A DNA stretch of 62,585 bases from Holosporaceae bacterium (GCA_031284365.1 JAISZX010000061.1:1-62585); one strand, 5' to 3'. Shown: positions 2,387-45,291, counted from the stretch's first letter. A program made the numbers and translations. Notes: generated from the sequence alone by a model not told the origin.

Positions 2387-3190
2387 ATGGAATATACAAA
2401 TAACCTCAAATTACCGCTACTTGTACCTAACCAATCTGGCAAGGAATTTACTCACAATGAGGCTCTGATCATTCTGGATAATTTGCTACATAGTGGAATT
2501 ATAGCCATTGTTAGTGAGCCACCAAATGTGCCAACGGTGGGTGGAAAGTATCTAATTAGTACAGATCCGGCGGGAGATTTTTTGGATAAAGAAAACCACA
2601 TAGCTGTCTACGACAATGGCTGGAGATTTATTATGCCGGCCACCGGTCAAATTATGTGGGACATGACTCTACATAAATTGATGGTTTTTGGTGAAAATTG
2701 GGAAGAGCTTACTGTAAATAATGCTGATAGCAGATTTGATGAAAATTTTAGCATAGTCAATCCCCAGGAAAATGACATTCTTAGCTATAGCAGTGGAAAA
2801 TTTTCCAATAACGGAGGATTACTGACAACATTGCTGAACTCTAAGGCAAATTTTGATTTTTCTAATATAACGAGTGTCGCCAAAAAACTAGTTTGCAATC
2901 TGTCAGCACCATCCAGCAGATCCATAAGCATATCCGTTGGAACAACGGGTAGCACCTACACAGCTCCGGCCAATGGCTACGTATCTATGCTCTCTACAGC
3001 CACCGGAGACCAGGCTATTGGAATACTGCGAAATATCAGTGCTGACAATTTGATACAGCGATTTGTAATACGCTATAGTAACTACTCCCACGGAGTATTT
3101 ATACCAACGGCTGCAGGACAGATTATACAATACGAGTACTCAAATATGAGTATTAACCAGCTGTCCTTTCACTATGCCAATGGCAACTAA
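2387..3190 (+). CDS. DUF2793-type phage/GTA tail-fibre-like protein
   Basis: The N-terminus NNLKLPLLVPNQSGKEFTHNEALIILDNLL ... PPNVPTVGGKYLIS ... IAVYDNGWRFIMP matches the DUF2793 signature (LxLPxxxxxQxxKxxxxNEALxxLD ... PP ... GxxYxV ... iAxxxxGWxF) as I recall it. Confidence 0.7.
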   Translation: MEYTNNLKLPLLVPNQSGKEFTHNEALIILDNLLHSGIIAIVSEPPNVPTVGGKYLISTDPAGDFLDKENHIAVYDNGWRFIMPATGQIMWDMTLHKLMVFGENWEELTVNNADSRFDENFSIVNPQENDILSYSSGKFSNNGGLLTTLLNSKANFDFSNITSVAKKLVCNLSAPSSRSISISVGTTGSTYTAPANGYVSMLSTATGDQAIGILRNISADNLIQRFVIRYSNYSHGVFIPTAAGQIIQYEYSNMSINQLSFHYANGN

Positions 3191-11900: not shown

Positions 11901-12023
11901 GAAAAGTTAACAAAAGAAGAAGAAGCTAAGATAAAACAGGAGAATCTAGAGAAAATGATAGAGAAAGCTAAAAAAATAGAAAAAATGATCAAAGAAGAGA
12001 AAGAACAAAATGATAAAAAATAA
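5943..12023 (+). CDS. giant polytopic membrane protein, VirB6/TrbL-like core with about 1200-aa acidic repeat tail
   Basis: GTG start. Architecture: N-terminal TM, an about 430-aa soluble domain, a cluster of at least 6 TM helices (aa about 470-800) and a long hydrophilic tail. The TM cluster includes LFGLFDQTSTFMKNWLKFIFSKCLELISFF, which resembles the TrbL/VirB6 F-x-x-W-L region. This is the layout of Rickettsiales VirB6 paralogues. The family call is by eye only. Confidence 0.5.
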   Translation: MAQNILKKLKHAAGILGEKIIDTIKKIAKTLFVFVIIIVIIILVYLIIILVFSVTNSKELKGTCIEADEFGQKRNTIPAKPISNSDYLLESKTYSHEKFMERIKQTNLRLSLTGEPIMINIIGKWIPWLSNLTKEDKRSIGLDDNFFCSLEKHKVTGSYSFSNNAEENELYYIRNYYSGIKESMTKTIGEDRKISIKGLEEIPERQKECWLTRGAGMYLAAYGVNGKTEPSAFHHVLASKMICNEIDWFGGKTKNDNYIITPYNIGDSNYNYRLNDFKKNYFSISYYEDPSDVNTDLNDEDKTILIQNGGQIIYNIEAHENLLIDKGIKNYGLIIANSMAKFAQACYRISRDIEGKNYRSYKSYFQYGPKTLYRNIAGLQNIKYDYGEKIQMIIVDKYYKNNSGDYQIEIISGIELDDANGIEGKLQEVEFFLLGTPYVGQLKDRTDGMIARIFHNVLSNDFVLFVRASMALYIAIYGFRVAFGFKKNKNDKSAITRRDLMMTMIKLSVITAITSPNAFSFFSSVIMSFTINGTIGIVDMIAGIFRNSSVNNTISLVGGLKYASNIPTLSRNFAIVDEVAAFFVDKPLLAKAFSFVFMKGINFLFGVIISIAMLLTMLFYLLKLLQAIVPFIFVLIQFTLVLPLAPLFILFGLFDQTSTFMKNWLKFIFSKCLELISFFTAFYFCTNIIDNYVKKLLSFRVCFKGLGDLLFPNSEGKKAVEVKNFNDFFEVNWIKEILNNFIAIIREDLPNNFFMYYMINILITVALTIMFDTITKEIMTIIGSILTIDGATANEGGGASALGSFDKFGVSSQLVNFSKTMGLATLQKESDALSWTKGLVDLEKGIGENAVKVLRGAKNVAEFVASPSKESLGNLIQKSTSWTDEKGNVHGAFDKGSLIDLSGNSGGLMVGDAPSNKDEGLSWADTVKKMDDVMSRDFKDTMVDRLIDDEGEKKLGKDVSKDIDLLKERNREFKNQIRELSDEDISKIFDDKTAAKLKKIKESTPGKLARSVMSKDKLEQLYLKEEFELGFDDMAVSKIREYLKKYRKVGYKKPKLNARDAAYYSDMIPDRPVPDKLKNRDGKSQSGTTGAKSSTTARTPQSKITAEGTTTEKHEGDTKLQNDDEAFAYPGESEAHKASEETGDILSSLVGKEVGDVLSSSVGDGKTGDIVLSSTDGEETGNIISSSVSESESEKQKQKETDSAKSKTKKTDKKRKSDENLEKHEIDRKYENKIREKELEKKGKNTEKGQQKIGDDQIIKRKSGDEEKFTFEYEGEKVTAEPKTNGQRKNVSERDEKDTGKSVIDDGTGIVETKLKDGYKQVSKNTSESNQQDEALSIDSQKKKNKEDENTTKLKKDKEISTYSDKSELKKSEQKTSSLEEEADDAKDKTKKKSGEEKKLNIESESSEQKQPGESELKQHGQKKNEEDLKSAENLDENSEHKEVSTSSNESKVDKKVDSESSSSEKEIDGEENKIKEVGKEDKLDKEPKEREVSEKHGSETKEGAKEREIKEEGGEKEGENIEEKEKGTKEEEKEVREDKKEIEKGEGVKEDGKEVEVEEKIEEEKGENVKEGRDKEKEGKEEKNVEENIKEEKEEESNEEEKELSGNSEEASIIEDENREEIDEEFEIVKKYKNETEKEEIVENEEKEREEEKEEEREEEIKEEIEEEIEEVKKERKDKEEEREEEREEEREEEREEEREEEREEVKEEVKEEVKEEVKEEVKEEVKEEVKEEVKEEVKEEVKEEVKEEVKEEVKEEVKEERKNEEEGREDRKDEREEDKEGIKEKEGENIVEEREEDIEEVKEEVKEERKDEEEGREEKNVEENIKEEKEEESNEEEKSYKADDNQTDENISEREDTLEEDKKGEYYYDESDSAENEIGEKINEKYESEQQDMASSNNDDQDSRDSELMESSSSADQSEVEKERSAEEHNTPKEEDVTAILTSGDAMVIVEGQADVLFDNEANVLVKNEADTVVSAVKNDSDASEKLTKEEEAKIKQENLEKMIEKAKKIEKMIKEEKEQNDKK
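10686..10751 (+). repeat. 66-bp direct repeat, copy 1 (identical to 11397..11462)
   Basis: The string gaagaaaaaaatgtggaagaaaatataaaagaagaaaaagaagaagagtcaaacgaagaggaaaaa is present at both sites. I compared them base by base. Confidence 0.9.
10983..11222 (+). repeat. coding tandem array, 20 x 12 nt
   Basis: 6 x gaagaagaaaga (EEER) are followed directly by 14 x gaagaRgtaaaa (EEVK). It lies in frame within the 5943..12023 CDS. Confidence 0.95.
11397..11462 (+). repeat. 66-bp direct repeat, copy 2
   Basis: Identical to 10686..10751. The offset is 711 nt, which is 237 codons. Confidence 0.9.
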
Positions 12024-18577: not shown

Positions 18578-19453
18578 TTGGAAAACAAATTTATTTCGGT
18601 CGAATCGGTGAAAAATATAGGTAGCAATTTAAAAACATCATTGGCAGATTCTCCAACGAATATGGTTCGCTGTTTTAAAATAAAACCAAAAGATGGTGAT
18701 ACTCTGGCTTTCACCGAGTACCATGCGGAGTTAAAGATAGGGGACATTGTTTACAAACCTCAGTGTAATTTCGAGGAAGGTGACGAACTTAGAGCCTTTT
18801 CAGACATAACCAGCAATAGTTACGGTGTCATAGCGGCATTTGACAACGTTGGCATTAGGAAAAATGAGATTTTTCTGGGTAAATTTGATAGTGCTAGAGT
18901 GGACATATTTATGGTTGACTGTGAGCATTTGGAATACGGTAGTGTCAGCATAGTTAGTGGTTTCGTGGATTCTGTGGAAATTTCCGGGGAAAGAGTTTAT
19001 TTCAGTGTAGCTGGAATTATGAGTGTTCTCGAGAAAACGATGGGCAGCGTCTATTCTCCTCTGTGCAGAGCCAAGTTTTGTGATAGAAAGTGTGGTTTGA
19101 CTATCCAAAGCTATAGCCATCACGGTGAAATAGCCAGTGTGACCGGAGATAGCGAATTTCACAGCGAAGTTAGTGCCATAAAAGACAAAGACAGGGACTA
19201 TTTTAGATATGGATTTGTTACTTTCACAGAAGGTAAAAATGTTAGCATTTCCATTGAGGTCAAACAGTCGTATCTTGGTAATATAGTTCTAAATGTACCA
19301 CCTCCAAGTGCCATGGGGGTGGGAGATCAGTTTACACTGGTGACCGGCTGCGATAAGAAATTTAGTAGCTGTATAGAAAAATTTGGAAATGCTGTAAATT
19401 TTAGGGGCGAACCCAATTTACCAAGAACTACTAAGGTGTACAAATTCTACTAG
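18578..19453 (+). CDS. GTA/phage tail protein, g13-like (DUF2163 + BR0599 C-terminal domain)
   Basis: The C-terminal VTGCDKKFSSCIEKFGNAVNFRGEPNLP matches the conserved GCDKxxxTCxxKFxNxxNFxGFP motif of the BR0599/DUF2163 family. Confidence 0.8.
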   Translation: MENKFISVESVKNIGSNLKTSLADSPTNMVRCFKIKPKDGDTLAFTEYHAELKIGDIVYKPQCNFEEGDELRAFSDITSNSYGVIAAFDNVGIRKNEIFLGKFDSARVDIFMVDCEHLEYGSVSIVSGFVDSVEISGERVYFSVAGIMSVLEKTMGSVYSPLCRAKFCDRKCGLTIQSYSHHGEIASVTGDSEFHSEVSAIKDKDRDYFRYGFVTFTEGKNVSISIEVKQSYLGNIVLNVPPPSAMGVGDQFTLVTGCDKKFSSCIEKFGNAVNFRGEPNLPRTTKVYKFY

Positions 19454-22691: not shown

Positions 22692-25600
22692 ATGACCGCT
22701 ACAGAATCAGGAAAAATGAATTGTAAACTAGCAAGCATGCTTGTCCTTTTCCTATTATTCGGAATATCAATAAGTTTCACAGCCTTTGGCACCGTAGAAG
22801 TTAGTATAGACAATTTTAATAGTCTAAAGAGAATTCTTGAAGAGCAAAAAACTCCTCAAGTGAGGCAGGCCGCTAGAAAAACAAAGGTGAATATAAAAAT
22901 AACTAAAAACATAGAACTCGAACAGGAAGGAATAGTAGCTACCTATACGTATTTATATGCTAATAAGACTATTAGCTATAGTAACGTAGTTATGTCTGGT
23001 AGTTTAGAGAAGAATACATCTGATAGTTTAAAGAATGGAAGAATTCGGATTCATGGAGAAAAACAAATGGGGATAGGACACCATTCTTTAACATTTGGTG
23101 ATTCCGACGTTGATCGAACAAATATTCTTCTGAAAGATTTGGAGTTTGATCGAACAAATATTCTTCTGAAAGATTTGGAGTTTGATAGTTGCAACAACAT
23201 ATACGAAGAAAGTAAAGATAAAGAAACAAGTTATAGGAAAGGTGGTGGAGCTATTGTTATTGGAGGACAAACAGATATTACACTGGAAAATGTAATTTTT
23301 AATAATAATAGATCAAACTATGCTGGTGGTGCTATTGCTTCTCTGGGACCAGTGATGCCTGTCGAGGGACGTGAATTTAAAAATAACTTAATTTTCAGAG
23401 GAAAAGACGATGAAAGAATTATTTTCAGTAAAAATTACGTTGGGCATGAAAGTGAAGACGATGGTCCAATAGCATTTGGGAGCGAAGGTGGTGCGGTCTA
23501 TCTGCGGTACTCAAATCTAAATTTTGAAAATGAAGTATATTTCATAGAAAATCAATCCTTTGGCTCAGGTGGAGCCGTAGCTTCCTCTGGAAATAAATAC
23601 CAGAAAAATATTATAAATTTTAAAAAAGGAGTTCTTTTAAGAAAAAATTCTAGTATTTTGGAATATAAAGGTTATATAGGTGGAGGTGCTATTTATTTTA
23701 GTGACTCAGATGCAAATTTTTATGAAAATGCAACTTTTGAAGGAAACTCTGCCAGAGGAAAAGGCGGCGCTATCTATTCCCTTGGAGCAGAAAAGAAAGA
23801 AAGCGATGAAAGAAATATTTTAAATTTCTCTGGAGAAACCAGATTCATTGATAATAAAACCAATGAAAGTTACGGTGGAGCAATTTGTGCTATAGGTTCA
23901 CGTTTTATCTTCAACGGTAAAACAAGTTTTAGCGAAAATGTTTCCCATGACAAAGGGGGTGCCATCTATATAACAACCTGGTTTCAAATTAACAATGGCA
24001 AATTTGAGAGTTCTATCTTTAAAGAACAGGCAATTTTTGAAAGAAATCAAGCTTACCAAGGTGGTAGTGCGATCTACATTGAAAATAGTACGGAGATAGT
24101 ATTCGATGCTGGCCTTAATTTGATCGATAATATCACCAAAGCACAAGAAAGTAGTGGAGCCATACATATGAAGGGGTTTAGTGACGAAAGTCTAGCCAAA
24201 ATTACCATAGTACAGAAAAATTCTAGTGAAACAATATTCAAAGGAAACGAATCAAGCAACGGAAGTGAACAAAACGCTTTCTATCTGGAACAATATTCAC
24301 GGCTAAATTTTGTAGTGAATGACAGCTACATTGATCTCTACGATAAAATAGGTGGGGACAGATCGAAAAATAACAATGTTGTAACTATAGACAAAGGCAG
24401 CGGCTGGTTCCGCATCAGAGAGGAAGGTTCAATAAATAACGTCGATCTTGTCAATAGAGGAAATCTAGATTTGGCGAGTTCAGTATCCACAGAATTTAAT
24501 CTAGTTAGTTTTACAAACTCTGGGAAAATTAAATTTGAAATATTTGACAATAGAGTGTCCGATGTAATTAAAGCAGATACGATAAGTCTAAATCAGGGAA
24601 CTACCATAGAAATATTTACCAATAGTAAAGACATTATACACGAAGGAAATGTCTACAACATTTTGATTTCTAAAAATGTCATTGTCGTTGGTGGTGAAAT
24701 AACAATTGAGCCAAAATTATTGGGCAATTTTAAAGTTGAAGGAAAACTCAGTGATGATAATAAAGTCTATAGCGTTACTGTTATAGATGATGAAGAAAGA
24801 GAGAGAAAAATAAAGGAAGAGGAAAGGAGAAAAGAAGAGGAAGAAATAAGGAGAAAGGAAGAGGAAAGGAGAAAAGAAGAGGAAGAAATAAGGAGAAAGG
24901 AAGAGGAAAAGAGAAAAGAAGAGGAAGAAATAAGGAGAAAGGAAGAGGAAAGGAGAAAAGAAGAGGAAGAAAGAAAAAGGAGAGAAGAGGAAAAGAGAAA
25001 GGAAGAGGAAGAAATAGTAAGAGTAGAGGAAGAAAGAAGAAAGGAAGAGAAAGAAATAGTGAGGAGAATAGAAGAAGATGAAAATGGGAGAAACAAGGAA
25101 AAAATAAATATAAAAGAAGAAGACGAGAAAAATGAAGAAGAAGAAGAGACAGTAAAAGAAAAAGATATGACAATAACAAAAAAAGAAGAGAAAGAGGAAG
25201 AGGAAAAAATAACAGAAGAGGGTATAGTGGAAGAAAAAAAAGATACGGTAGAAGAAATGGAAGAAATTATAAAAACAGAAGATGAAGAAAAAAAGGAAAA
25301 ACATGAAGAAATAGCGATACCATTTAAAGATAAATCTCCGGATGAAACAGTATCTTTTGCAACCAATTTGCCTGGCAATCAACAAAATTATAATATTTTC
25401 ACTCAATTTGTAGCAAATATCATCAGCAATAATCTTCTATCTACCTGCCGAGCAAAGATCAGTAAGGATATTTCCCTAGATACTGTGGTTTTGGAACCAA
25501 ACTATGGCAATAGCAAAATATCCAATAAATTAACTGAAAGTACTCCAGGTATTCTAATAACCTATGGCCACAGCTTCGAGAATTTAATTGCTAGCAGAGA

Positions 25601-26291
25601 TATTCTTCTGGGACTACAATTTAATCTAGGTAACCATTTCTTCAGAGAGTACTATGGCAACAAAGCTAGAGCCAATGAAAAAACCGTAGCCCTACAGCTG
25701 TCAAGTGAGATTGGTAACAAATTTAATTTAATCTTAAATCTATCTTATGGAAAAAATAGCTATAATTTGGCTATAAACACAGAAAAATCAGCTATGATGG
25801 CAGAAACTAGTTTTTCTACCAGTGTATTTGATGTGGCTGCAATTCTAGAAAAAGAGTTTAGAATTAAAAATAATCTAATTTTCATTCCTTCCGGGGTACT
25901 ACAAGGTTCTCTGCTGAGTCACAATAAATTTGTTGGAAAAAATGAAAGAAATTTAGATTTAGCAATTTATGGCAACAATTATCATCTATTTTTTAGTAGC
26001 CTTAATCTGAATCTAACGTTAGATTCATATAAGCTTAGACCATTTATTGAGTTAGGAGCTAAATATCTAATATCAGCATCCAAACCAGAGGTTATAGCTA
26101 ATTTTATAGATTATCCTGACTATAAATTCAGGGTTGTTGGAATGACTTTCGATAAATTGCTAGGTTCTGCGGCTTTAGGCTTTAGTTATAGGGTGACTAA
26201 CAATTTATCCATAAATCTTAAAGGTGATTACCAATTTACCAAAAACTACAGATCAATTGTCGCTAGCTTTTTTGTAACCTATAGTTTATAA
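22692..26291 (+). CDS. autotransporter-type surface protein with Pmp (GGA[IV]/FxxN) passenger repeats, charged repeat stalk and C-terminal beta-barrel
   Basis: Signal-like N-terminus. At least 8 GGA(I/V) motifs alternate with FxxN (GGGAIVIGG..FNNN; GGAIAS; EGGAVYL..FIEN; GGGAIYF..FEGN; KGGAIYS..FIDN; YGGAICA..FSEN; KGGAIYI..FERN). The last about 300 aa have an alternating-hydrophobic beta-strand pattern. Confidence 0.75.
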   Translation: MTATESGKMNCKLASMLVLFLLFGISISFTAFGTVEVSIDNFNSLKRILEEQKTPQVRQAARKTKVNIKITKNIELEQEGIVATYTYLYANKTISYSNVVMSGSLEKNTSDSLKNGRIRIHGEKQMGIGHHSLTFGDSDVDRTNILLKDLEFDRTNILLKDLEFDSCNNIYEESKDKETSYRKGGGAIVIGGQTDITLENVIFNNNRSNYAGGAIASLGPVMPVEGREFKNNLIFRGKDDERIIFSKNYVGHESEDDGPIAFGSEGGAVYLRYSNLNFENEVYFIENQSFGSGGAVASSGNKYQKNIINFKKGVLLRKNSSILEYKGYIGGGAIYFSDSDANFYENATFEGNSARGKGGAIYSLGAEKKESDERNILNFSGETRFIDNKTNESYGGAICAIGSRFIFNGKTSFSENVSHDKGGAIYITTWFQINNGKFESSIFKEQAIFERNQAYQGGSAIYIENSTEIVFDAGLNLIDNITKAQESSGAIHMKGFSDESLAKITIVQKNSSETIFKGNESSNGSEQNAFYLEQYSRLNFVVNDSYIDLYDKIGGDRSKNNNVVTIDKGSGWFRIREEGSINNVDLVNRGNLDLASSVSTEFNLVSFTNSGKIKFEIFDNRVSDVIKADTISLNQGTTIEIFTNSKDIIHEGNVYNILISKNVIVVGGEITIEPKLLGNFKVEGKLSDDNKVYSVTVIDDEERERKIKEEERRKEEEEIRRKEEERRKEEEEIRRKEEEKRKEEEEIRRKEEERRKEEEERKRREEEKRKEEEEIVRVEEERRKEEKEIVRRIEEDENGRNKEKINIKEEDEKNEEEEETVKEKDMTITKKEEKEEEEKITEEGIVEEKKDTVEEMEEIIKTEDEEKKEKHEEIAIPFKDKSPDETVSFATNLPGNQQNYNIFTQFVANIISNNLLSTCRAKISKDISLDTVVLEPNYGNSKISNKLTESTPGILITYGHSFENLIASRDILLGLQFNLGNHFFREYYGNKARANEKTVALQLSSEIGNKFNLILNLSYGKNSYNLAINTEKSAMMAETSFSTSVFDVAAILEKEFRIKNNLIFIPSGVLQGSLLSHNKFVGKNERNLDLAIYGNNYHLFFSSLNLNLTLDSYKLRPFIELGAKYLISASKPEVIANFIDYPDYKFRVVGMTFDKLLGSAALGFSYRVTNNLSINLKGDYQFTKNYRSIVASFFVTYSL
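23112..23183 (+). repeat. perfect 2 x 36-bp tandem duplication (DRTNILLKDLEF x2)
   Basis: gatcgaacaaatattcttctgaaagatttggagttt occurs twice back to back, in frame. Confidence 0.95.
24816..25070 (+). repeat. 42-nt (14-aa) coding tandem repeat, 3 near-perfect plus about 3 degenerate copies
   Basis: Units start at 24816, 24858, 24900 and 24942 (gaagaggaaaggagaaaagaagaggaagaaataaggagaaag = EERRKEEEEIRRKE) and decay towards 25070. Confidence 0.85.
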
Positions 26292-28969: not shown

Positions 28970-29214
28970 CTTTCTTCTCCAATTTTAATTACCAGCACAT
29001 TACTGGACGAACCTAAAAAGTACGTCCAAATTCAATAAATTAGTACCGTCCAAGATATAAAGCCGGGATGTCGTCCAGCGGACTTTCTATGAAAACGATA
29101 CGCAAACTAACGTGCTATTCTACTACGTTTTTTTGTAACTTTTCAATAAAAATATGTTGTTCGTTGAAAAAAAATAGTTTCGTGTGCATGTAAGCTTATT
29201 ACTTTGATTCTTAA

Positions 29215-29291
<77 letters not shown>

Positions 29292-29378
29292 TCGCTATCA
29301 ATATATATAACGATATAAATATATTCAATACTTATAATGAAATGATTTTTTGATGTATATGTTGATATCAAAAATATG

Positions 29379-30128: not shown

Positions 30129-32819
30129 TTATTCATGCAACCCAAGTATCTGCCATCCTGGATTCTCAACATAATTTTTTATATTAGACAGAAATTCCGA
30201 AGCTTTTCTGGTATCAGAAATTCTGTGATCATACGATAAAGATATATAAAGCATTGGCCTGATTTCCATTCCGCCATCGGCAACGACTGGTCGATTGTGC
30301 ATTTTATGAACGCTTAAAGTTGCGACCTGTGGTGGTGTAAGTAGATCTGTTCCTATTAGTGAGCCGTAAATTCCAGCGTTAACAACTGTAAAAGTTCCTC
30401 CGGAGGCTTCCTCTATTGATAAAGTTCCTTCTATAGCTCGTCTTGACAAATGAATCATTGCCACTTCGATTTCAGCAATTGTCATCGCATCCGCGTGCCT
30501 TATTACTGGTGCTGCTATACCATCATTTCCGCAGGTAATAATGGATATATCAAAATTATTTTTATATATGATTTCATCATTATGAATATGCGCATTAAAG
30601 ATGCGGTATTGCTTCAACGCAGCAATGCTGGCCGAGATAAAAAATGGGGTAAATCCAAGTCTAGTATTGTGCTTTTTCGAAAAAGCATTGCCAAAAGTTT
30701 TCTCCAAAGCTAGAATGGCACCCATATTAACTTCGTTCGATACAGTTGAAATAACTGACGCGTCGTAGGAATCGCGCATTTTTTCTGAGATACGACGTCG
30801 CAAAAAATCTATCGGCTCATTGTAATCTCCCGGAGTTTCAAAAAATTTAGGTTTATTCCAATTATCTGCGTATACTTCCGGAGTGTTGCTTTCTTGCTCT
30901 ACACTTAACAATTTTTTTACAATTCTATTTTGTTCCTCAATTTCGCAATTCTTCTCTTTTAAAACTTTATTGTGCAAATCAGATTCTTCTTTAGTAAAGT
31001 TTCCAAATTGTTCAGTCGTTTCATTCTTTGTGACATCTGTTATCTCACTATTCACAGTGCTAGTGTTTATCTCCGCGACATGTTTTTTGCATGTCTCATT
31101 TTTTAAAACATTAACAGTTCTGTGAACACTTTCGTACATATTTTTGTTAATTTCAACTACGGCAAAATGTACCATTTCCACAGTCGTTTCTTCGATTTTT
31201 TCGATAACATCAGCCTTAACATTGCCAATAGTTTTCTCGATGGAAGACTTAATTTCTTTGTAAGCATTTTTCCTAGCGTCGTCTACGGCTTCACGTACAT
31301 CACACTCCATTTTTTCGTTTATCTCAGCTACAACGCGTTTTAGCGTCAAATTAGTCATTCCGCGAACATTATCACAGGCAATTTTTCTAACTTCACTAAC
31401 CATTTCGTATATATCATGTCCAATTTTTTGATTGATTTCTGTAATAATCGAATTTAACACTGAGTGCATCGATTCGCTAATTTCAGAACAAGCATTTCTC
31501 CTCGTATTATCAACAACTTCGTGCAGATCTTTACCCATTTCTTGATTAATTTGTACAATAATAGAGCGCAGCATTGAACTTGCCGATTCACGGATTTCAT
31601 TGCATGCTTCAATTTTTCCGTCATTCATTACATCGCGAATGTTATTCTCAATTTTTTTGTTAATCTCATTAATGGCAGATTCCAGAATTGAATGAGTCGT
31701 TCCACATATTTCATTATTTGCAATTTTGAGAATTTCTTCCTTTAGTAACTCTGCTTCGTTGGAAGCTAACCGTGTTGTTGATTCAATTAACTCTTCAGCG
31801 TGAACATGTGAACGCATTCTGGCATCTTTAACGATTTCTTTTACTATCGTTTTTGATTCCTTTGCTGCATGTTTACGTGCAGAATGAATGATATCTTTTT
31901 TTATCGCTTTCGCTTCCATTTTTGATTCATTTATAGCTTCCTCGATAATTTCTTTTGATAGCAATTCTGCAGCTTGTTTCGCTTCCTCTTTTGCGTTGGA
32001 GATGGCATCTTTTATTGTTGTTTCAGCTTTGTACTTAGCTTCTTTTTCCGCATTACTGATGATTTCATAGCGAATATTTTCAGCTTCCTTCAGGGCGCGC
32101 TCTCGAGCCTCATCTATTAATTTTAATTTTGTATTTTCTGCCTCTTGGATTGAGCCTTGAATAATTTTTTTGTGCATTTCACTGGCGTCTCTAGTTGCTT
32201 TTTCCTCATATTCTCTTAATATTTTGCACTTAAGCTCTTCAGCTTGCATGAAAGCCAGTCTTCGAGCTTCCTCAATGATCTTTTCTTTCAGTTTATGAGA
32301 CTCTTCTCTGGCTTGATTTTCGGCATTTTTAAGGATATTCATGCACTTTTCTTCTGTATGTACATAAACTTCACCTATTATCTCTTCTTCAATTTTCACA
32401 CTTTTTTCAACTGAGGTTTCAACAAGTGGAACCGAAAGACCGTGCCCTTTGCTGGTAAAATCATTGAAAATTTGATTTTCTTCATGAATTTCATTCTGTA
32501 TCTCAGATCCTACAACATCAGATACAATTTTTGCTTCCATTATTTCTACACTTCGTATAACGTCAGATATATCCGCGCTCAAATCCGTTTCTATGACAGC
32601 AATTTTTGTTCCCTGCGGAATTACAGCACCTTCTTCCACCAAGATCTTCACTAATATACAGTCGTAACTCGACGTAATGCCGCATGCCACAGACATGGTT
32701 TCAGCATCCGCTACTATTTCATTTTTAGAAATTCTTTCGCCTACACTTTTATACCAAGAAGACAGGACAACTTCCTCTGAAGAGTTATCAAAATTCGGAA
32801 CTATTATATCTATACGCAT
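30129..32819 (-). CDS. E2 (SucB-type) 2-oxoacid dehydrogenase acyltransferase homologue with a degenerate lipoyl domain and a long helical-repeat insert
   Basis: The C-terminal 230 aa form the acyltransferase catalytic domain (GGTFTVVNAGIYGS ... LSYDHRISD). The N-terminal about 75 aa are lipoyl-domain-like, but ETDKV reads ETMSV. ATG at 32819 (MRIDIIVPNF, GGTGA 7 nt upstream) is preferred over the longest-ORF start at 32921. Confidence 0.8.
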   Translation of the reverse strand: MRIDIIVPNFDNSSEEVVLSSWYKSVGERISKNEIVADAETMSVACGITSSYDCILVKILVEEGAVIPQGTKIAVIETDLSADISDVIRSVEIMEAKIVSDVVGSEIQNEIHEENQIFNDFTSKGHGLSVPLVETSVEKSVKIEEEIIGEVYVHTEEKCMNILKNAENQAREESHKLKEKIIEEARRLAFMQAEELKCKILREYEEKATRDASEMHKKIIQGSIQEAENTKLKLIDEARERALKEAENIRYEIISNAEKEAKYKAETTIKDAISNAKEEAKQAAELLSKEIIEEAINESKMEAKAIKKDIIHSARKHAAKESKTIVKEIVKDARMRSHVHAEELIESTTRLASNEAELLKEEILKIANNEICGTTHSILESAINEINKKIENNIRDVMNDGKIEACNEIRESASSMLRSIIVQINQEMGKDLHEVVDNTRRNACSEISESMHSVLNSIITEINQKIGHDIYEMVSEVRKIACDNVRGMTNLTLKRVVAEINEKMECDVREAVDDARKNAYKEIKSSIEKTIGNVKADVIEKIEETTVEMVHFAVVEINKNMYESVHRTVNVLKNETCKKHVAEINTSTVNSEITDVTKNETTEQFGNFTKEESDLHNKVLKEKNCEIEEQNRIVKKLLSVEQESNTPEVYADNWNKPKFFETPGDYNEPIDFLRRRISEKMRDSYDASVISTVSNEVNMGAILALEKTFGNAFSKKHNTRLGFTPFFISASIAALKQYRIFNAHIHNDEIIYKNNFDISIITCGNDGIAAPVIRHADAMTIAEIEVAMIHLSRRAIEGTLSIEEASGGTFTVVNAGIYGSLIGTDLLTPPQVATLSVHKMHNRPVVADGGMEIRPMLYISLSYDHRISDTRKASEFLSNIKNYVENPGWQILGLHE

Positions 32820-32914
32820 TATCAAATCACCATAGTGCCCACGATCATTAAATAACAAAAAAATTGCTTTTGTGTTAATTTGCTCAAAAAAAATCGCATT
32901 TTTACGTGGTTTTT

Positions 32915-33616
32915 TTACCATGTCGATCCAAGCTTTATGAAAATTTGGCGTTCGGTATCCTTTTGTATTTCAATGAAATTTTGTTTTATTGTTTTTATGA
33001 TATAGTCATCAATATGATCTTCAACACTAAACCAAGAATCATCTATGTAAGCTTTAGAATCGCTAATTGTACAAAACAACTGGTGTTGTTTTGTTTTTTT
33101 AAACAAATTAATACGGTCATATTTTCGATTTGTGACATTGATGGAAGAAATATTTGGGAGCTCTTTTATTATTGTAGACGTAAATTGAATAACAGCTGCT
33201 ACGTCTCCTTTATCAGTGATAAGTAATTTTATTGACTTAAAATATATCAAGCCAGGCAATTCAAAAAACAATTTATCTATAAAATAGTAAATTTTTTGTT
33301 CTTGATTTGCCAGGATTTTTATTTCAGTGCCAGTGGAATCACATTTAATCAATATCTTTTTCAAACACAGTTCTTTTGTGATTTCCTTTATGCATTTTTT
33401 CATATCGTCACTTGAAGAAAAGAGTTTTTCTTTTGATTTTAAATGCTTAGGTGTATTAATTTTTATCTCTCTTACAAGTTTGTTTATTTGATTTCTCGAT
33501 TCGATGAGACACTCTTTTTGATTTTCAAGATCAATTAAATTCGATATTTTTGAGATACACAGAATACTCAATATTGTTATCAAAAAAAATGGAATACATA
33601 TTCTTATTTTATGCAT
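32915..33616 (-). CDS. hypothetical bitopic membrane protein (GspM/PilO-like by architecture only)
   Basis: N-terminal TM (ICIPFFLITILSILCI) plus about 200 aa predicted outside. It overlaps the upstream gene by 13 nt. No motif-level match. Confidence 0.45.
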   Translation of the reverse strand: MHKIRICIPFFLITILSILCISKISNLIDLENQKECLIESRNQINKLVREIKINTPKHLKSKEKLFSSSDDMKKCIKEITKELCLKKILIKCDSTGTEIKILANQEQKIYYFIDKLFFELPGLIYFKSIKLLITDKGDVAAVIQFTSTIIKELPNISSINVTNRKYDRINLFKKTKQHQLFCTISDSKAYIDDSWFSVEDHIDDYIIKTIKQNFIEIQKDTERQIFIKLGSTW

Positions 33617-34647
33617 ATGTTGGATCCAATTTTTTTATCTGAGTCGAGCTCTTCATATTCATCATTTGAATTTCTTTCTATTTCAATAGCATCACACGTT
33701 TTTAATTTTTCGAACTGTGATCTGTTTAGTGATGTTTTTATTTTGATTTTATTTTCATAGGATAATTGCTCAACATTAATAAGATGTTTGCGACATATCT
33801 CAGAAGCATTCCGAAATAGCTCCAAAGGATTTTGTAATTTTTTTATTTTATCAAAAAATTGCTTTGTATTGGAGAAATTTTCATTGTTAATTTCTAAAAC
33901 GATATCATCAGTTGTCACACGCACACTTTTTTTGAGAAATGAAATGTCATTTTTTTGATTTTCTATACTTTTATCGATATAAAATAGTGATAAAGAAATG
34001 GCAACTACAACTGCATATAAAAATTTCTCATTTAAAAATTTTTTAATATAATTTTTGTTAACATAGATAGGTTTTATTTGATTGTTTGATAACAGAAAAT
34101 CAGTAATAATTTTACTCATGTTATTTGAATTCTCGATGTAATATTTCTCAATAACAACTTTTGAATTGATTTCTAGATTTTGCAATGTAGAAAAAAATTT
34201 CACACTTTCTGTCATTCCGAATCTTTGCAAATACATTATGGTTCTGGAAATTTCGTTTTGCATGCTTGAATTTTCAGATAAAAATCTCGACAATATTATT
34301 CCTCTTCCTACTCCGGCTATAATTCTTGCTCCGCTTGCATGATAAGCGGCGTATAACCACCAATCTTTTTCATTAAGTTTACTAATATTATCACAAAATT
34401 CCGCAATAACGTTTTCCATTAAAAATATATCATCATTTGCGGTTAAATTTTGCGGAAGTAAAATTTTTTGGATGTAATGATTTGATTTTTCAAAGAAAGA
34501 TATTCTGTCTTTTTTTACCAAAAATGCTTTTTCACGTTCAGAAAAAGTCTTTCTTTTGCATTTTAGAATTTTGTACGCGTCAAATAAGGAACAGTTCATT
34601 AACTGCTCCAGAGATAACTCAACTTCATTTGTGTCCAATAAATACAT
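33604..34647 (-). CDS. hypothetical bitopic protein (GspL / PilM-N-like by architecture only)
   Basis: About 205-aa N-terminal soluble part, a single TM (FLYAVVVAISLSLFYI), then about 125 aa at the C-terminus. The ATG immediately follows the gspF/pilC-like stop (taaATG). Confidence 0.45.
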   Translation of the reverse strand: MYLLDTNEVELSLEQLMNCSLFDAYKILKCKRKTFSEREKAFLVKKDRISFFEKSNHYIQKILLPQNLTANDDIFLMENVIAEFCDNISKLNEKDWWLYAAYHASGARIIAGVGRGIILSRFLSENSSMQNEISRTIMYLQRFGMTESVKFFSTLQNLEINSKVVIEKYYIENSNNMSKIITDFLLSNNQIKPIYVNKNYIKKFLNEKFLYAVVVAISLSLFYIDKSIENQKNDISFLKKSVRVTTDDIVLEINNENFSNTKQFFDKIKKLQNPLELFRNASEICRKHLINVEQLSYENKIKIKTSLNRSQFEKLKTCDAIEIERNSNDEYEELDSDKKIGSNICIK

Positions 34648-35823
34648 TTATGTACCTGCCATTTCAACATAATTGTAAATCGGATAAAACAAACTGCATA
34701 AAATGAAAACAAATATCAATCCAGTAAAAAACGTCAGCCCAATACTCATAAATTGCCCTAGTGACTTGATTTCAAACAATATTTCTTTGTATTGATTTTT
34801 ACTAATGTGATGAAAGCTACTAGGAAGATCGTTTCCATCTTCTCCAACGTATATGGCGAGAAGAATATCTCGCGGAATCAAATTTCCGAGGGCGAAGGAT
34901 TCCGCAATTTTGTATCCATCAATTATATTATCGCGAATATTTTGCAATTCGCTTTTTAATGAATCTAATTTTATTGTTTCGATAGCTAAGTTCAACGCTG
35001 GAATGAAGTCCAATTTTGCGTTAAGAGCTATACTTAAAATTTTGCAGAACTGCCACATGGAAATTTTTATGATTAACTGACTGATTTTTGGAATTTTTAA
35101 CATTACTTGCGCTAAAATTTTTTTGCCTTTTTTGGTTGGTAAAAAAAACGCAATTAACATCAACGGAAAAATCATGAATTCAGAAATTTTTGGAAGTACA
35201 TTTATCGCGAATTGAGTGAGTTGTGGAATTTCTCCACCATCGCAATTTTGAACCAATGACGTAACCTGAGGCCCCAAAAATACTATACTCAAAACGAGAA
35301 CAAGAAGCGCGACTACCATAATAAAAATTGGATATATAATTGCTCGCTTTACATTATTTTTCCAATCCATTTGTAATTTTAAAAAACTTAAAATGTTTGA
35401 AATTACTTCTATTGTGTTTCCGGTATTTTCCGCTGATTTCAACATTCCAACAATAACTTCATCAAAAATAAAATGACTTTTTTGAAACGCCTCACCAATG
35501 CTTTCTCCTTCTTTCAAAGAATTAGAAATATCCAAAAGAGTTGCATTTAAAGTTTTGTTTCCATGAAAATCGGAAAAAGAATCGATGGCGTCGTTAATAT
35601 TCACTCCACATTTCAACTGAAAATTTATATGCATAAAAAATGTTAGTAAATCTTCAAGTGCAACTTTTTGCGAAGCAAAATATATTCTTTTTATTTCAAT
35701 TGGATGACAATGTTTCTTGTGAAGAATGTCATAAACGCACTTAAAATTATCGGCCAAAATTGCACCATCTTTTTTTTTGCCATTCTTAGTCAGCACTTTA
35801 TATTTATATATCGGCATTGCCAA
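34648..35823 (-). CDS. type II secretion / type IV pilus platform protein (GspF/PilC family)
   Basis: Two GspF-type repeats, e.g. GESIGEAFQKSHFIFDEVIVGMLKSAENTGNTIEV and the second-half analogue GYKIAESFALGNLIPRDILLAIYVGEDGNDL, with 3 TM segments. Confidence 0.85.
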   Translation of the reverse strand: MAMPIYKYKVLTKNGKKKDGAILADNFKCVYDILHKKHCHPIEIKRIYFASQKVALEDLLTFFMHINFQLKCGVNINDAIDSFSDFHGNKTLNATLLDISNSLKEGESIGEAFQKSHFIFDEVIVGMLKSAENTGNTIEVISNILSFLKLQMDWKNNVKRAIIYPIFIMVVALLVLVLSIVFLGPQVTSLVQNCDGGEIPQLTQFAINVLPKISEFMIFPLMLIAFFLPTKKGKKILAQVMLKIPKISQLIIKISMWQFCKILSIALNAKLDFIPALNLAIETIKLDSLKSELQNIRDNIIDGYKIAESFALGNLIPRDILLAIYVGEDGNDLPSSFHHISKNQYKEILFEIKSLGQFMSIGLTFFTGLIFVFILCSLFYPIYNYVEMAGT

Positions 35824-37276
35824 AAACTCTCGCTATTTCGTTCAAATCTGTGAGATGAAAATCGACAGCTTCCCTTGAAGATTTTTGAAAAGTTTTATCA
35901 AGTTTGCATACGCTGATATCTTCGCACCCGAGAATGTTTTTTTTTAACTCTTCAGAAAAATAAATGTACTCAGTTATCGGAAATCTACCGTGATATTCGC
36001 AGTTTGTTAGACGTCGAGCAAGACGTTGTGAAAAAATTCCGATGAGACTTGGTAAAAAATCAGATAATTTTAGTCCTAAATCCAACAATCTTCGAATTCC
36101 TTCGATTGGTGTAGCTGCGTGCAGAGTGGCGAGCACGAGTCGTCCAGTAAGTGATGCGCGAATAGCAGTTGCCGCTGTCGCTTCGTCTCTAATTTCCCCG
36201 ACTAGCATAACATCAGGGTCCTGTCGCAGAATTGATCGAACACCATCTGCAAAAGATAAAATTCCTTCTTCTCGCAAGTCAAGTTGTTTTATGCCATCAA
36301 TTTGATATTCAACAGGATCTTCCAGAGTCATTATATTGATCGATGCAGAATTTATTTCCTTTAATAGGGAATATAACGTAGTTGTTTTACCGGATCCGGT
36401 TGGTCCAACTATCAAAAATATTCCACTGGGAAAAGATATAACCTTCTTAAGCCACAAAAAATCATCACGGGAGAAACCTAGCTCAATCAATGACTTAATG
36501 CCATTTGATAAATCAAAGATTCGCACAACGAAATTCTCTCCAAAAATACTCGGATGTGTAGAAATTCTCAGGTCGATTATTCTTCCTGCCAAGTGAATGC
36601 GCGTATGTCCGCTCTGAGGTCGACGATTCTCCGTTATGTTAAGATTGGAAATTAATTTCAGCTTCGATTTCATGCGCATCCAAGAATCTAAATCTATGTT
36701 TTTTAAGACATATAGAATGCCGTCCACTCTTATGCGAACGCGAACAAAATTTTCTGATGGTTCAAAATGAATATCGCTCGCCTTGGATTCCATGGCTTCA
36801 AAAATTATTTTATTTAACAGAAGCAATGGATCTTTATCAATTAATTCTGCGTCGCATTTCATTATTTCTAGAAATCTCAAAATTTCCGTTTCTTTTGCAA
36901 TAAAAAATTCTATTTTTTTCTCTCTGAGAGATGAACTAATGGCGTCAATTGCACGTAAATCTCCTGGATCGGCGATTGCGATTTTTGCGCATTTGTCGTT
37001 GATCAAAAATGGGATAACCAAATGTTTTGCTGCTATATTGTACGGAATAGATGTTAGCGTTTTTTTATCTACATATAAAAATTCAAGACTAACGATTTTA
37101 ATTGAGTACAATTCTGATAGAATTTTCAGCAGATCATTTTCTTTTAAAAAACCGAGAGTTACTGCCAATTGTCCAAAAAGTAAGTCTGACTTCTTCTGTG
37201 ATTTTGCAACGATAAGGATTTGTTCTTTAGTCATTAATCCTCTGTTAAATAGTGTTTCTCCAATGCAGTTAACCAA
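35804..37276 (-). CDS. type II secretion / type IV pilus assembly ATPase (GspE/PilB family)
   Basis: N-terminal T2SSE_N-like domain. Walker A VGPTGSGKTTT; Asp box LEDPVEYQ; Walker B/His box DPDVMLVGEIRD ... TGRLVLATLHA. The tetracysteine motif is degenerate (only 3 scattered Cys). Confidence 0.9.
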   Translation of the reverse strand: MVNCIGETLFNRGLMTKEQILIVAKSQKKSDLLFGQLAVTLGFLKENDLLKILSELYSIKIVSLEFLYVDKKTLTSIPYNIAAKHLVIPFLINDKCAKIAIADPGDLRAIDAISSSLREKKIEFFIAKETEILRFLEIMKCDAELIDKDPLLLLNKIIFEAMESKASDIHFEPSENFVRVRIRVDGILYVLKNIDLDSWMRMKSKLKLISNLNITENRRPQSGHTRIHLAGRIIDLRISTHPSIFGENFVVRIFDLSNGIKSLIELGFSRDDFLWLKKVISFPSGIFLIVGPTGSGKTTTLYSLLKEINSASINIMTLEDPVEYQIDGIKQLDLREEGILSFADGVRSILRQDPDVMLVGEIRDEATAATAIRASLTGRLVLATLHAATPIEGIRRLLDLGLKLSDFLPSLIGIFSQRLARRLTNCEYHGRFPITEYIYFSEELKKNILGCEDISVCKLDKTFQKSSREAVDFHLTDLNEIARVFGNADI

Positions 37277-43161: not shown

Positions 43162-45291
43162 TTATCTCCAGCGTAGATTATAAACCTCCTGCTGTCCAAA
43201 GCTTTTGGCTAGAGAAATTACACCTACATATTCTGTGGAGTATCTTTCGTAATATTTGAGTCCTTTTTGCTCAAATTCATTGCGTTCATCGTTTGTTTCT
43301 CCGTATAAAAGTGACACAAATTGTTGCGTTGCGTATACCTGTCCAACTGCTGTGACGGGCTCGAGTCTTGCCGCTCTGTTAATGTGTCCGCCATAGAAAT
43401 TTGTTTTCTTGATGAATGGATCCTGCGCAATGAACACTGGCCCAGAATGCAACGATATCCTTGCCCGAATTGGAAATGGAAACTCCGGATATTTTAGCCC
43501 GAGATTTTCAATAATGTCGCAATATCTGAGTCCAAAATCAGCTATTTTCATGGAGCTGTCTGCAACAGCAAACACAGCATCTCCCCAAGTATTTAGCGAT
43601 TCCAGTGAAACACCAATTTTATCTATGGCCGCGTTAAGTTTTTCTAAAAAGTCCAGGAAAGACGGAATATGCTCGTCTTGTAGCTTACTATAGCCTGATA
43701 AATCAGAAAACATCATAGACTTTATGACGCGTTCAGGCGTTTTTGATATAAATGGATCAAAAGTTAATGAAAATTTTTGAGGTTGAACAAGAGAAAGGTC
43801 GATTTTATCGACATTTCCGCCGTTATCGCCCAATTCGTCCAGATCTATCAGGTGAAGCGTACTAATATTTGTCCATCTATCGATAAAATCTGCTGGACCT
43901 CCGGGAATCGCATCAGTTCTGGAATGCCAAACAGCCATTAAATGAGGCTCTGTGGTCAGAAATTTTCCTCGCATAACGGCGCTGCCGTGCATGACGTGAT
44001 TCGCGAACCTGTATAGCATGTCATGCCCAAGGTAGCGGTCTTCACAGGCAAAGCTGACAGAATGAGCACTTTCGAGAACTCGCTGAAATCTTTTTTCCCA
44101 GCGAGGCCCAGCGTGCCTCACATTTGTTTCAATGAAATCGGAAATAGCAAAGGGCAAAATAATGTTGACCTCTCCACCCAGGCTCTGAAGCGCCTCCATG
44201 AATATGATATCAGCGCCACAGGACGCCGAACTATATCCTATCTTTGCATTAATGGATTGTAATTTTTCCGTAATAATACGTTTGACATCGGCCTCAATTT
44301 CCTGTGGAAATAGCGATACCTGGAAGCTAGGGTGATCTATCGCATGTCCCGTAAACACAACAATCGTTGGAGGACTCAGAATTTCAAATGTTTTATTGGG
44401 GACCTTAAGACCAGCGTCTCTCAGAAAATACAACTGTTGTCGAGCAGTTACTATCGAAATATAACTTTCGCTGGCACTTTGCTTCATTGCTTCGCCATAA
44501 AGTTTGCAAGCATCGTCCTCGCGTCCAAGCAACAACTGAGCTTCAGCCAAATCTATCAGCTCATTAAATGATGCTTCGAGCCCGAAAGGAGGTAATAATT
44601 TCAGAACTTCTGCTGCCATCTGCTTAGCCTGAGCGTCTTCTCCGGTCACCCAGGAAAGCCACGCTGCGTGCATGCCTGTCCGCGTCTTCTTCTCTTTTTT
44701 GAAGGAAGCAAGGTACAACTCCCGCGATATTTCCAGATCTCGACAACTGCGAGAATATTTCCACGACTCGTTAAATATGTGACCGAGATTGGCGATAACA
44801 TCTGCGCGTCCTTCCGTGAGAAATTTGCTAGTCAAGAGATCTTCGATAGTAATAACCATCGTATTAGTTGCTTCGTCTTTCTGCGGAGTAATTCCAAGAA
44901 TTTGGTATATTAAGTTTTGAGACTCTTTGACTGCTCCTGTTTTCAGTAAAACAAGAGCGTATGCCTGGGCCAATCCAACATTGTTCGGATGTTTTTGAAA
45001 TGCCTTTTTAGCTATCACATGAGCTTTAAACATGTGCCCGGTAGCAATCAAGTTCGTTATCTGATCTTCAACTTCATTGCATGAAGCTTTCTCAAGTTTA
45101 TTTTCTTCAGAATCGTCATCACTTAGATCAGTATCGTCAACTGGAGTCTCTACGGCTGTGGTTTTTTTCTGTGAAGAGGTTGCTGGCGCATCCGAGCTAT
45201 CCACTGGATTACACTCACTGGACGTCTGATTTTCTTCCTTGTTTTCCCCAGTGTTTTCAGTATCTTCTGTCACGTTTCCTTCTTTTTTCAC
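43162..45291 (-). CDS. multidomain signalling protein: acidic N-terminus, TPR-like region, Rossmann-like middle domain, class III nucleotide cyclase
   Basis: The C-terminal about 190 aa read MFSDLSGYSKL ... WGDAVFAV ... ISLHSGPVF ... YGGHINRAARLE ... GQVYATQQF, which are the class III cyclase metal-Asp, GD and NxxxR motifs. The middle domain reads IVVFTGHAID ... SSASCGADIIFMEALQSLGGEVNIILPF. Confidence 0.7.
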   Translation of the reverse strand: MKKEGNVTEDTENTGENKEENQTSSECNPVDSSDAPATSSQKKTTAVETPVDDTDLSDDDSEENKLEKASCNEVEDQITNLIATGHMFKAHVIAKKAFQKHPNNVGLAQAYALVLLKTGAVKESQNLIYQILGITPQKDEATNTMVITIEDLLTSKFLTEGRADVIANLGHIFNESWKYSRSCRDLEISRELYLASFKKEKKTRTGMHAAWLSWVTGEDAQAKQMAAEVLKLLPPFGLEASFNELIDLAEAQLLLGREDDACKLYGEAMKQSASESYISIVTARQQLYFLRDAGLKVPNKTFEILSPPTIVVFTGHAIDHPSFQVSLFPQEIEADVKRIITEKLQSINAKIGYSSASCGADIIFMEALQSLGGEVNIILPFAISDFIETNVRHAGPRWEKRFQRVLESAHSVSFACEDRYLGHDMLYRFANHVMHGSAVMRGKFLTTEPHLMAVWHSRTDAIPGGPADFIDRWTNISTLHLIDLDELGDNGGNVDKIDLSLVQPQKFSLTFDPFISKTPERVIKSMMFSDLSGYSKLQDEHIPSFLDFLEKLNAAIDKIGVSLESLNTWGDAVFAVADSSMKIADFGLRYCDIIENLGLKYPEFPFPIRARISLHSGPVFIAQDPFIKKTNFYGGHINRAARLEPVTAVGQVYATQQFVSLLYGETNDERNEFEQKGLKYYERYSTEYVGVISLAKSFGQQEVYNLRWR

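Follow-up and report, generated by a model that had tools for sequence, protein, structure and literature searches.

A lysine-less E2-like protein family with a long helical region in uncultured Holosporaceae

Textbooks illustrate swinging-arm catalysis with the E2 proteins of the 2-oxoacid dehydrogenases. Some E2 paralogues are known to do without part of this machinery. E3BP (protein X) of the eukaryotic pyruvate dehydrogenase is one whose core serves assembly, not catalysis; it keeps the lipoylated lysine and the peripheral-subunit-binding domain (PSBD), has lost the catalytic histidine, and co-assembles with the true E2. A second is the actinobacterial OdhA/KGD protein, in which the succinyltransferase-type E2o domain is not accompanied by its own functional lipoyl domain (PMC10415282). 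Here we describe an E2-like gene on the minus strand of a 62,585-nucleotide stretch of DNA from Holosporaceae bacterium (GCA_031284365.1 JAISZX010000061.1:1-62585; hereafter the window), together with its relatives. An earlier reading of the window, made from its sequence only, had judged the product unlikely to be a working E2 of 2-oxoglutarate dehydrogenase (OGDH), and the family as a whole agrees: there is no lipoyl-lysine, no PSBD, Thr323 and Ser333 (Escherichia coli numbering) are replaced, scores fall below the sucB cut-offs, and no sucA or lpdA lies next door. We consider it very probable that the protein is not a working OGDH E2, because it cannot be lipoylated, a docking domain is missing, the oxyanion hydroxyls are apparently lost, the family is distinct and constrained, and the gene is not clustered with OGDH genes. 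Tentatively, and with slightly less than even confidence, we read it as a clade-specific descendant of alphaproteobacterial sucB that no longer serves as the E2 of OGDH and is instead a structural or adaptor hub with helical arms.

Pseudo-lipoyl barrel and altered E2o core

The open reading frame (ORF) proposed at 30129–32921 (−) is indeed open, with a translation of 930 amino acids (aa), though its real start lies inside it. All 51 homologues from public data begin with M-x-[IV]-D-[IV]-I-[IV]-P at the methionine equivalent to that of MRIDIIVPNF, and GGTGA stands 7 nucleotides (nt) upstream of the corresponding ATG at 32819. Since every homologue begins there and this GGTGA precedes the ATG, the true start is almost certainly ATG 32819 (Met35 of the long ORF) rather than the ATG at 32921. 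The protein is therefore 896 aa long and separated from the upstream gene by a 95-nt gap, the first of the two arrangements (that gap or a 7-nt overlap) left open earlier. The in-frame 5′ extension is probably untranslated; most homologues have nothing equivalent at their N-terminus, and P0017 and P0039 carry unrelated extensions. Residues are numbered from the methionine at 32819, except where ORF residues are named. From N- to C-terminus, the protein consists of a Lys-less lipoyl-fold barrel, an acidic linker, a 196-aa helical domain, variable helical repeats and a SucB-type catalytic domain, and the family alignment (A1) spans its full length. The features are as follows, with the evidence for each in brackets.

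30129..32819 (−): re-delimited E2-like gene, 896 codons plus stop
32820..32921 (−): in-frame 34-codon 5′ extension, made up of the 95-nt intergenic gap and the 7-nt overlap with the upstream gene
32580..32819 (−): pseudo-lipoyl domain, residues 1–80 (PF00364, E2o alignments, AF2 model)
32373..32579 (−): helix 85–120 followed by a disordered acidic linker, residues 81–149 (AF2, motif scan)
31785..32372 (−): family-specific helical domain, residues 150–345 (alignments A1 and A2, profile searches, AF2)
31020..31784 (−): variable helical repeats, residues 346–600, about five units of 38 aa (autocorrelation)
30840..31019 (−): linker, short helix and pre-core motif, residues 601–660 (A1; pLDDT 28–66)
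30132..30839 (−): E2o (SucB)-type catalytic domain, residues 661–896 (PF00198, solved E2o cores, Foldseek)

The N-terminal domain is a lipoyl fold, as had been proposed by eye. It matches PF00364 (lipoyl/biotinyl fold) at ORF residues 39–110 with 31.7 bits in Pfam, and AF2 models it as an all-β barrel-sandwich fold with a pLDDT of 83–90. The further proposal that its lipoyl-lysine is a serine also withstands proper alignment, which places no lysine at the lipoylation position. In phmmer alignments to solved E2o chains, M42-S43 of ETMSV stands opposite the D-K of ETDKV, and a gap-free alignment with P0181, a canonical lipoyl domain of 45% identity, gives the same register. The D-K tip holds a lysine in 0 of 57 family N-terminal domains and is occupied by 22 different dipeptides, and E[TS]DK is present in 95 of 97 canonical SucB sequences. 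With entropies of 2.16 and 2.21 bits at positions 42 and 43, against 0–0.25 at the flanks, the tip is among the most variable positions of the domain, and the flanking E40, T41, C46, T49 and S50 are invariant or nearly so. This combination of a hypervariable tip and near-invariant flanks suggests that the barrel is kept for a reason other than presenting a modifiable tip. As the hairpin tip has no lysine, the protein cannot carry lipoate, and biotinylation in its place, considered because of nearby accB-accC and birA genes, was rejected for the same reason. The stretch A-C-G-I-T-S-S-Y-D-C contains two cysteines (residues 46–54, 32658–32684 (−)), the first of them three residues past the old lipoyl-lysine position; across the family Cys46 is invariant and Cys54 at least 90% conserved, and the pair could form a redox or metal site. 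A search with the N-terminal domain alone, limited by its word index, returned only three proteins.

No PSBD is detectable behind the barrel, in line with the sequence-only reading. The window protein has no Pfam match to PF02817 (E3-binding domain), and a custom hidden Markov model (HMM), trained on the stretch between the domains in 97 canonical SucB sequences and run with filters off, scored at most 4.8 bits on 52 members; the protein thus has no detectable E3/E1 docking domain. The linker, modelled with a pLDDT below 50 at residues 121–152, contains the motif G-H-G-L-S-V-P-L (residues 125–132, window 32424–32447). Its family consensus, Y-x-L-S-V-(P/S), occurs in about 45 of 52 members at a variable distance from the barrel. 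We rejected this motif as a vestigial PSBD, because the HMM gave no signal.

The C-terminal acyltransferase domain is complete, as had been claimed. It matches PF00198 (E2 catalytic, CAT-like) at ORF residues 701–921 with 186.5 bits (E 6.7e-55). Its closest solved structures are the OGDH E2 cores of Dictyostelium, E. coli and human (E 1e-55 to 1e-57; 38–41% identity), and Foldseek superposes it on the E2o cores 1c4t and 8xll with TM scores of 0.85–0.92. We aligned 52 family sequences with 97 canonical SucB sequences and compared their active sites, with the following result in E. coli numbering.

His375: canonical 97/97; family 51/52
Asp379: canonical 97/97; family 51/52
Arg376: canonical 97/97; family 49/52
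His348 and Ser330: canonical 97/97; family 52/52
Tyr373: canonical at least 90%; family 52/52
Position 323: canonical Ser/Thr 97/97; family Val/Ile 52/52
Position 333: canonical Ser 92/97; family Gly 52/52
Position 380: canonical Gly 97/97; family Thr 52/52

The window protein keeps His865, Asp869 and Tyr863 and carries Val813, Gly823 and Thr870 at the positions of E. coli T323, S333 and G380, and ten further sequences from other searches show the same active-site pattern. The alignment thus upholds the earlier observation that the His and Asp of DHRxxD are retained and the following Gly is Thr; it adds what that reading missed, the replacement of both the catalytic Thr/Ser at position 323 and Ser333. 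In the cryo-electron microscopy structure of OdhA with succinyl-CoA, the thioester carbonyl is hydrogen-bonded by Thr258 and Ser268, and the succinyl carboxylate is held by Ser129 and Tyr314 beside the catalytic His316 (PMC10415282). From the conserved T-N-x-G-x-x-G-x-x-x-S spacing we infer that Thr258 and Ser268 correspond to E. coli T323 and S333. On this mapping the family would have lost both hydroxyls that polarize the thioester and stabilize the tetrahedral intermediate, with the general base kept. Changes extend beyond these sites: the family has fixed a different residue in about 40 columns where canonical SucB hardly varies, among them R216E, M234T, P335D, N338T, G346S and R399W. The hydrophobic C-terminal L/I-L-G-L is retained, which is compatible with oligomer assembly and with no stronger statement. 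A few otherwise intact members depart from the family pattern, with the catalytic His replaced by Gln in P0050, the 1,908-aa P0173 and L021, and the catalytic Asp by Ala in P0052.

A distinct family under constraint and its helical region

The family comprises about 70 sequences, and the named ones all come from uncultured Holosporaceae or Alphaproteobacteria metagenome-assembled genomes (MAGs). Databases name members '2-oxo acid dehydrogenase subunit E2' or '2-oxoglutarate dehydrogenase E2 component'. By their catalytic domains, members score 332–487 bits at 69–89% identity to the window's domain and canonical SucB proteins at most 222 bits at 49% identity, and the gap between the two groups is empty. 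Against the NCBIfam sucB equivalogs, the window protein reaches 280.9 bits for TIGR01347 (cut-off 378.65) and 276.2 bits for NF004309 (cut-off 449). Scanning a genome collection with the single sequence yielded at least nine close relatives. Two candidates from the metagenome scan, L024 and L025, were rejected as ordinary high-GC E2 proteins with the lysine, the PSBD and TITN/DHRVIDG motifs. The isolate codes of the carriers' MAGs look like those of termite-gut bins. A review describes an uncharacterized Holosporales clade known mostly from animal guts, especially those of termites (PMC11909080).

Selection was assessed across six relatives. Synonymous sites are saturated (proportion of synonymous differences, pS, about 0.66–0.91), which blocks dN/dS in most comparisons; we therefore report the proportion of non-synonymous differences (pN) alone.

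Catalytic domain: pN 0.07–0.09
Barrel: pN 0.09–0.15
Conserved helical domain: pN 0.17–0.25
Linker and variable repeats: pN 0.24–0.48 (variable repeat region 0.3–0.4)

Between the window and the related locus L001, the catalytic domain is 84% and the barrel 78% identical, and the housekeeping proteins TrpRS, Der and BamB are 75.5%, 62.7% and 63.9% identical. The catalytic-fold domain, the barrel and the helical domain are thus all under strong purifying selection, and the gene is not decaying. Two loci, L012 (at 5986–5988) and L013, have one in-frame TAA in the variable region of the E2-like gene, present in both the ENA and the NCBI assembly; in L012 it yields a 478-aa N-terminal ORF and a 318-aa catalytic ORF, both otherwise intact. 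At L014 (631–3379), the fragmentary 357-aa P0063 has ankyrin repeats in place of the barrel and rod before the same catalytic domain, and a 443-aa ankyrin protein is encoded just upstream.

The region between barrel and core had been described as a spacer of charged helical repeats. Helices and repeats are there, but residues 150–345 (−) are no loose spacer; they form a conserved, family-specific domain of fixed length (192–196 aa in most members), with invariant residues that include a Q-G-S motif near residue 222, and among 15 diverse members (A2) it is 46–71% identical to the window copy. Pfam at E ≤ 10 returned only noise for this domain (ATP-synt_B, E 9.8), a profile search of the PDB gave nothing below E 0.5, and Foldseek with the single-helix model found 0 matches. 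An exhaustive profile search of 1.84e9 representative proteins retrieved its own family alone, as 11 clusters at E ≤ 1e-30. Modelled by itself with AF2, the domain is one continuous 194-residue helix (pLDDT 90.8); the full-length model has helices at residues 145–220, 228–398 and 406–571 (pLDDT about 70–78). One uninterrupted helix of this kind, predicted for a monomer, is typical of rods that depend on partner chains, and may mean the same here. The domain has a sequence period of 19 residues (z = 9.8), which replaces the 11/22-residue units proposed before, and a sharp hydrophobic period of 3.8 residues (19/5) runs through the whole rod, conserved and variable parts alike (31020–32372).

The repeats that follow were recognized correctly. 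The lag-38 autocorrelation reaches z = 9.6–11.5 against shuffles, and three of the roughly five 38-aa units end in A-C, the three Cys-terminated units of the earlier description. Recent tandem duplication of these units was sought at the DNA level and none was detected. In relatives, the repeat-bearing interval from the helical domain to the WNKP motif measures 87–521 aa, with other periods, and accounts for the spread of total lengths from 635 to 1,908 aa. The WNKP residues belong to a pre-core motif, Y-A-D-N-W-N-K-P-K-F-F (residues 650–660), in which W654 and P657 are at least 90% conserved in A1 and which is also found in the fragments P0054–P0061.

Genomic neighbourhoods

We compared the window with 18 related loci that have usable flanks. 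Neither sucA nor lpdA occurs anywhere in the 62.6-kb window, so the absence of these genes beside the E2-like gene, noted before, extends to the whole stretch; the synteny check on orthologues that had been proposed likewise found neither gene adjoining the E2-like gene in any of the 18 loci. The most frequent neighbour is bacA (uppP; undecaprenyl-diphosphatase), which lies directly upstream on the same strand, 56–104 nt away, in 11 of the 19 loci. The genes upstream of bacA differ, falling into three sets (accB-accC; amino-acid permease with def and fmt; and rplU-rpmA), which suggests that the pairing of bacA and the E2-like gene is itself what is retained. The pairing hints at co-expression and perhaps at an envelope-related role.

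In the window itself, the upstream position is taken by four same-strand genes of secretion or pilus type, as had been described.

32915..37276 (−): compact upstream cassette of four overlapping or abutting genes, context only
35804–37276 (−): GspE/PilB-type ATPase with an N-terminal MshEN (c-di-GMP-binding type) domain
34648–35823 (−): GspF/PilC homologue
33604–34647 and 32915–33616 (−): two ORFs without a family match, at least one with a hydrophobic (membrane-like) segment

Near this cassette we saw neither a secretin nor a pilin gene, and it adjoins the E2-like gene only in the window and in 0 of the related loci. No Sec/Tat signal peptide is present, the N-terminus MRIDIIVPNFDNSSEE being the first β-strand of the barrel, and the protein is for that reason not a type II secretion substrate. 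The link to secretion or pili that the earlier reading implied is therefore rejected: the adjacency is confined to the window, and relatives have bacA upstream instead. L001 alone shares the wider neighbourhood of the window (trpS, an outer-membrane-protein gene, bamB and der).

At L005 (5494–9799 (−)), genes for a 2-oxoacid:ferredoxin oxidoreductase (gamma, alpha and beta subunits) and a GltD-like Fe-S flavoprotein lie divergent from the E2-like gene. Such oxidoreductases are known from anaerobes and do not need lipoate, and these neighbours are consistent with anaerobic, lipoate-independent 2-oxoacid oxidation in the clade.

The remainder of the window is an ordinary low-GC alphaproteobacterial chromosome with dnaK, pnp, rpsO, leuS, trpS, spoT, bamB and der. 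A tRNA-Pro(TGG) gene (29215–29291 (−)) sits between the E2-like gene and rpsO-pnp, and the 82-aa ORF that overlaps it (29123–29371) is spurious. A 2,026-aa ORF (5943–12023 (+)) has a TrbL/VirB6 domain at residues 471–696 and resembles the enlarged VirB6 of intracellular alphaproteobacteria, making the presence of a type IV secretion system likely; strand composition is extreme at 10001–12000 (GC skew 0.56, AT skew 0.59). A 1,199-aa ORF (22692–26291 (+)) with Chlamydia polymorphic-membrane-protein (PMP) repeats probably encodes an autotransporter-like surface protein. Genes for a DUF2793 protein (2387–3190 (+)) and a baseplate-hub-like protein (18578–19453 (+); Phage_phiJL001_Gp84_N and BR0599) may be scattered remnants of a gene-transfer agent or prophage tail. 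A MORN-repeat protein (231–1613 (+)) and a 709-aa protein with an adenylate/guanylate cyclase domain (43162–45291 (−)) are eukaryote-like features of intracellular bacteria.

Possible function and comparison with known systems

In the hub reading that we favour, the E2 catalytic fold would be kept mainly because it obligately forms trimers, and perhaps a 24-mer cube; three N-terminal chains would project from each threefold vertex. In E2 cores the N-termini emerge close together at the threefold axes, and E2p cores have been used for trimeric antigen display; the PDB match 8eqn is presumably a core of that type. This geometry would let three rods bundle at each vertex. With about 430 helical residues per chain, a rod would be long: stretched out completely, at 0.15 nm per residue, it could reach about 60 nm at most, but folding back of the three predicted helices would shorten it greatly. 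At its tip would sit a Lys-less barrel 'head', which, like the Y-x-L-S-V motif, a putative binding site, would be kept far from the hub, and the retained His-Asp pair would serve the binding of CoA or acyl-CoA, residual chemistry or the stability of the fold. The whole would act as a multivalent structural or adaptor hub.

Several points weigh against such a hub. The structure predictions are of monomers only, so that oligomer, coiled coil and cage are our extrapolation, and we know of no partner protein for the family. The 3.8-residue hydrophobic period lies outside the well-known coiled-coil range of 3.5–3.75. His375, Asp379, Arg376, His348, Ser330 and Tyr373, whose OdhA equivalent binds the succinyl carboxylate, are kept in 94–100% of members, which seems to exceed what a pure scaffold would need, and the family-fixed Thr380 could in principle supply a new hydroxyl. 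The more specific picture of a non-metabolic self-assembling particle, with a trimeric or 24-meric hub, helical spikes tens of nanometres long, three cofactor-less heads and a rod of 19-residue repeats, is rather unlikely at roughly one chance in four; if true, Holosporaceae from guts and protists would possess a conserved bacterial scaffold of a new kind, located in the cytoplasm or at the envelope and genetically paired with bacA.

The same active-site retention supports a free, acyl-CoA-dependent acyltransferase with a new acceptor, which we regard as unlikely yet as the strongest of the alternatives. The barrel head and the rod would then recruit the substrate, and through the E2o active site, with its His-Asp pair, CoA tunnel and carboxylate-binding Tyr, succinyl or another acyl group would pass from CoA to, for example, a protein lysine, a thiol, or an envelope or lipid intermediate. 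The very strong conservation of the catalytic domain fits this account, as does Thr380, a fixed new hydroxyl beside Asp379; the fixed family substitutions cluster in the active-site loop 323–346 and look like re-tuning rather than decay; and the bacA pairing, together with accB-accC in three loci, could point to lipid or envelope metabolism, although gene order in reduced genomes is often functionally meaningless. Against it stands that both hydrogen-bond donors to the thioester carbonyl have become Val/Ile and Gly in every member examined, if their roles are as described for OdhA (PMC10415282). In addition, His-to-Gln and Asp-to-Ala variants persist in otherwise intact members, and no acceptor is identifiable. 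A further alternative, that the protein is still the E2o of a working OGDH and borrows lipoyl groups in trans, with sucA, lpdA and a lipoylated protein elsewhere in the genome, is very improbable. The SucB-type catalytic domain, its closest solved relatives among OGDH E2 cores and the kept His-Asp-Tyr of the succinyl site would all suit it, and OdhA is a precedent for an E2o domain that lacks a lipoyl domain of its own (PMC10415282). Yet every member examined lacks the oxyanion Thr and Ser, neither a PSBD nor a region for binding E1 is present, scores are far under the equivalog cut-offs, sucA or lpdA is never adjacent in the window or the 18 related loci, and L005 has a 2-oxoacid:ferredoxin oxidoreductase next door; nor would this account give any role to the Lys-less conserved barrel and the 430-residue rod.

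A quite different possibility, which we think improbable though less so than an E2o served in trans, is that the protein is exported, for example by a type IV or VI system, as a host-directed effector acting on protist proteins or organelles, with acyl transfer optional. Lineage-specific repeat expansions (variable region 87–521 aa, total 635–1,908 aa) and fast-evolving linkers would be in keeping with this, as would P0063 at L014, in which ankyrin repeats precede this catalytic domain and whose neighbour is a further ankyrin protein, and the likely type IV system indicated by the giant VirB6/TrbL-domain protein of the window. Characterized members of the carriers' lineage live within protists (PMC11909080). 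On the other side, the N-terminus runs directly into the first β-strand without a signal peptide, the C-terminus is a conserved folded E2 element and thus atypical of a disordered type IV signal, the catalytic domain and barrel are, unusually for an effector, slower to evolve than housekeeping proteins, and the adjacency to the secretion cassette is not conserved.

The adaptor-hub reading thus stays our preferred one. A lineage that has discarded the cofactor site, the docking domain and the oxyanion residues and still holds the core under constraint above that of housekeeping genes points to reuse of the fold. Given their database names, these proteins would lead metabolic reconstructions of the uncultured symbionts to credit them wrongly with part of a tricarboxylic acid cycle enzyme. 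For structural study, the family offers a natural E2-core display scaffold with a new 196-residue helical domain and an unusual 19-residue helical repeat. Our literature search for lysine-less or coiled-coil E2 proteins in Holosporales found none.

The building blocks of the protein are known, and the closest comparison is with SucB/E2o (TIGR01347; PF00364, PF02817 and PF00198). Both have a lipoyl-fold barrel first and an E2 catalytic domain last, and the family keeps the DHR His, the Asp, Tyr373, His348 and the hydrophobic C-terminal residues. It differs from SucB in the missing lipoyl-lysine and PSBD, in the switches T323 to V/I, S333 to G and G380 to T with about 40 others, in some 580 residues of helix and linker between the two domains of the window protein, and in its sub-cut-off equivalog scores and lack of clustering with sucA or lpdA. 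E3BP resembles the family as a pseudo-E2, but the pattern is reversed: here the lysine and PSBD are lost and the His is kept. OdhA shares an E2o-type domain without a functional lipoyl domain of its own. In OdhA, however, Thr258 and Ser268 are present, E1o is part of the same chain, and the lipoyl domains are supplied by E2p; family members lack both residues, have a helical rod and a dead barrel attached to the core, and show no link to an E1. Membrane-fusion proteins of the HlyD/AcrA type likewise combine a cofactor-free lipoyl-like barrel with a long helical rod, and a few family members weakly match the barrel-sandwich Pfam models PF25997 and PF25973. Their helical hairpin, however, interrupts the barrel, and they reside in the periplasm and carry a signal or anchor; family members have the rod after the barrel, lack a signal peptide and end in an E2 core. 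New to us is the combination: loss of the lysine, the PSBD and the oxyanion residues with retention of the His, gain of a 196-aa helical domain and a rod of 19/38-residue repeats, and pairing with bacA.

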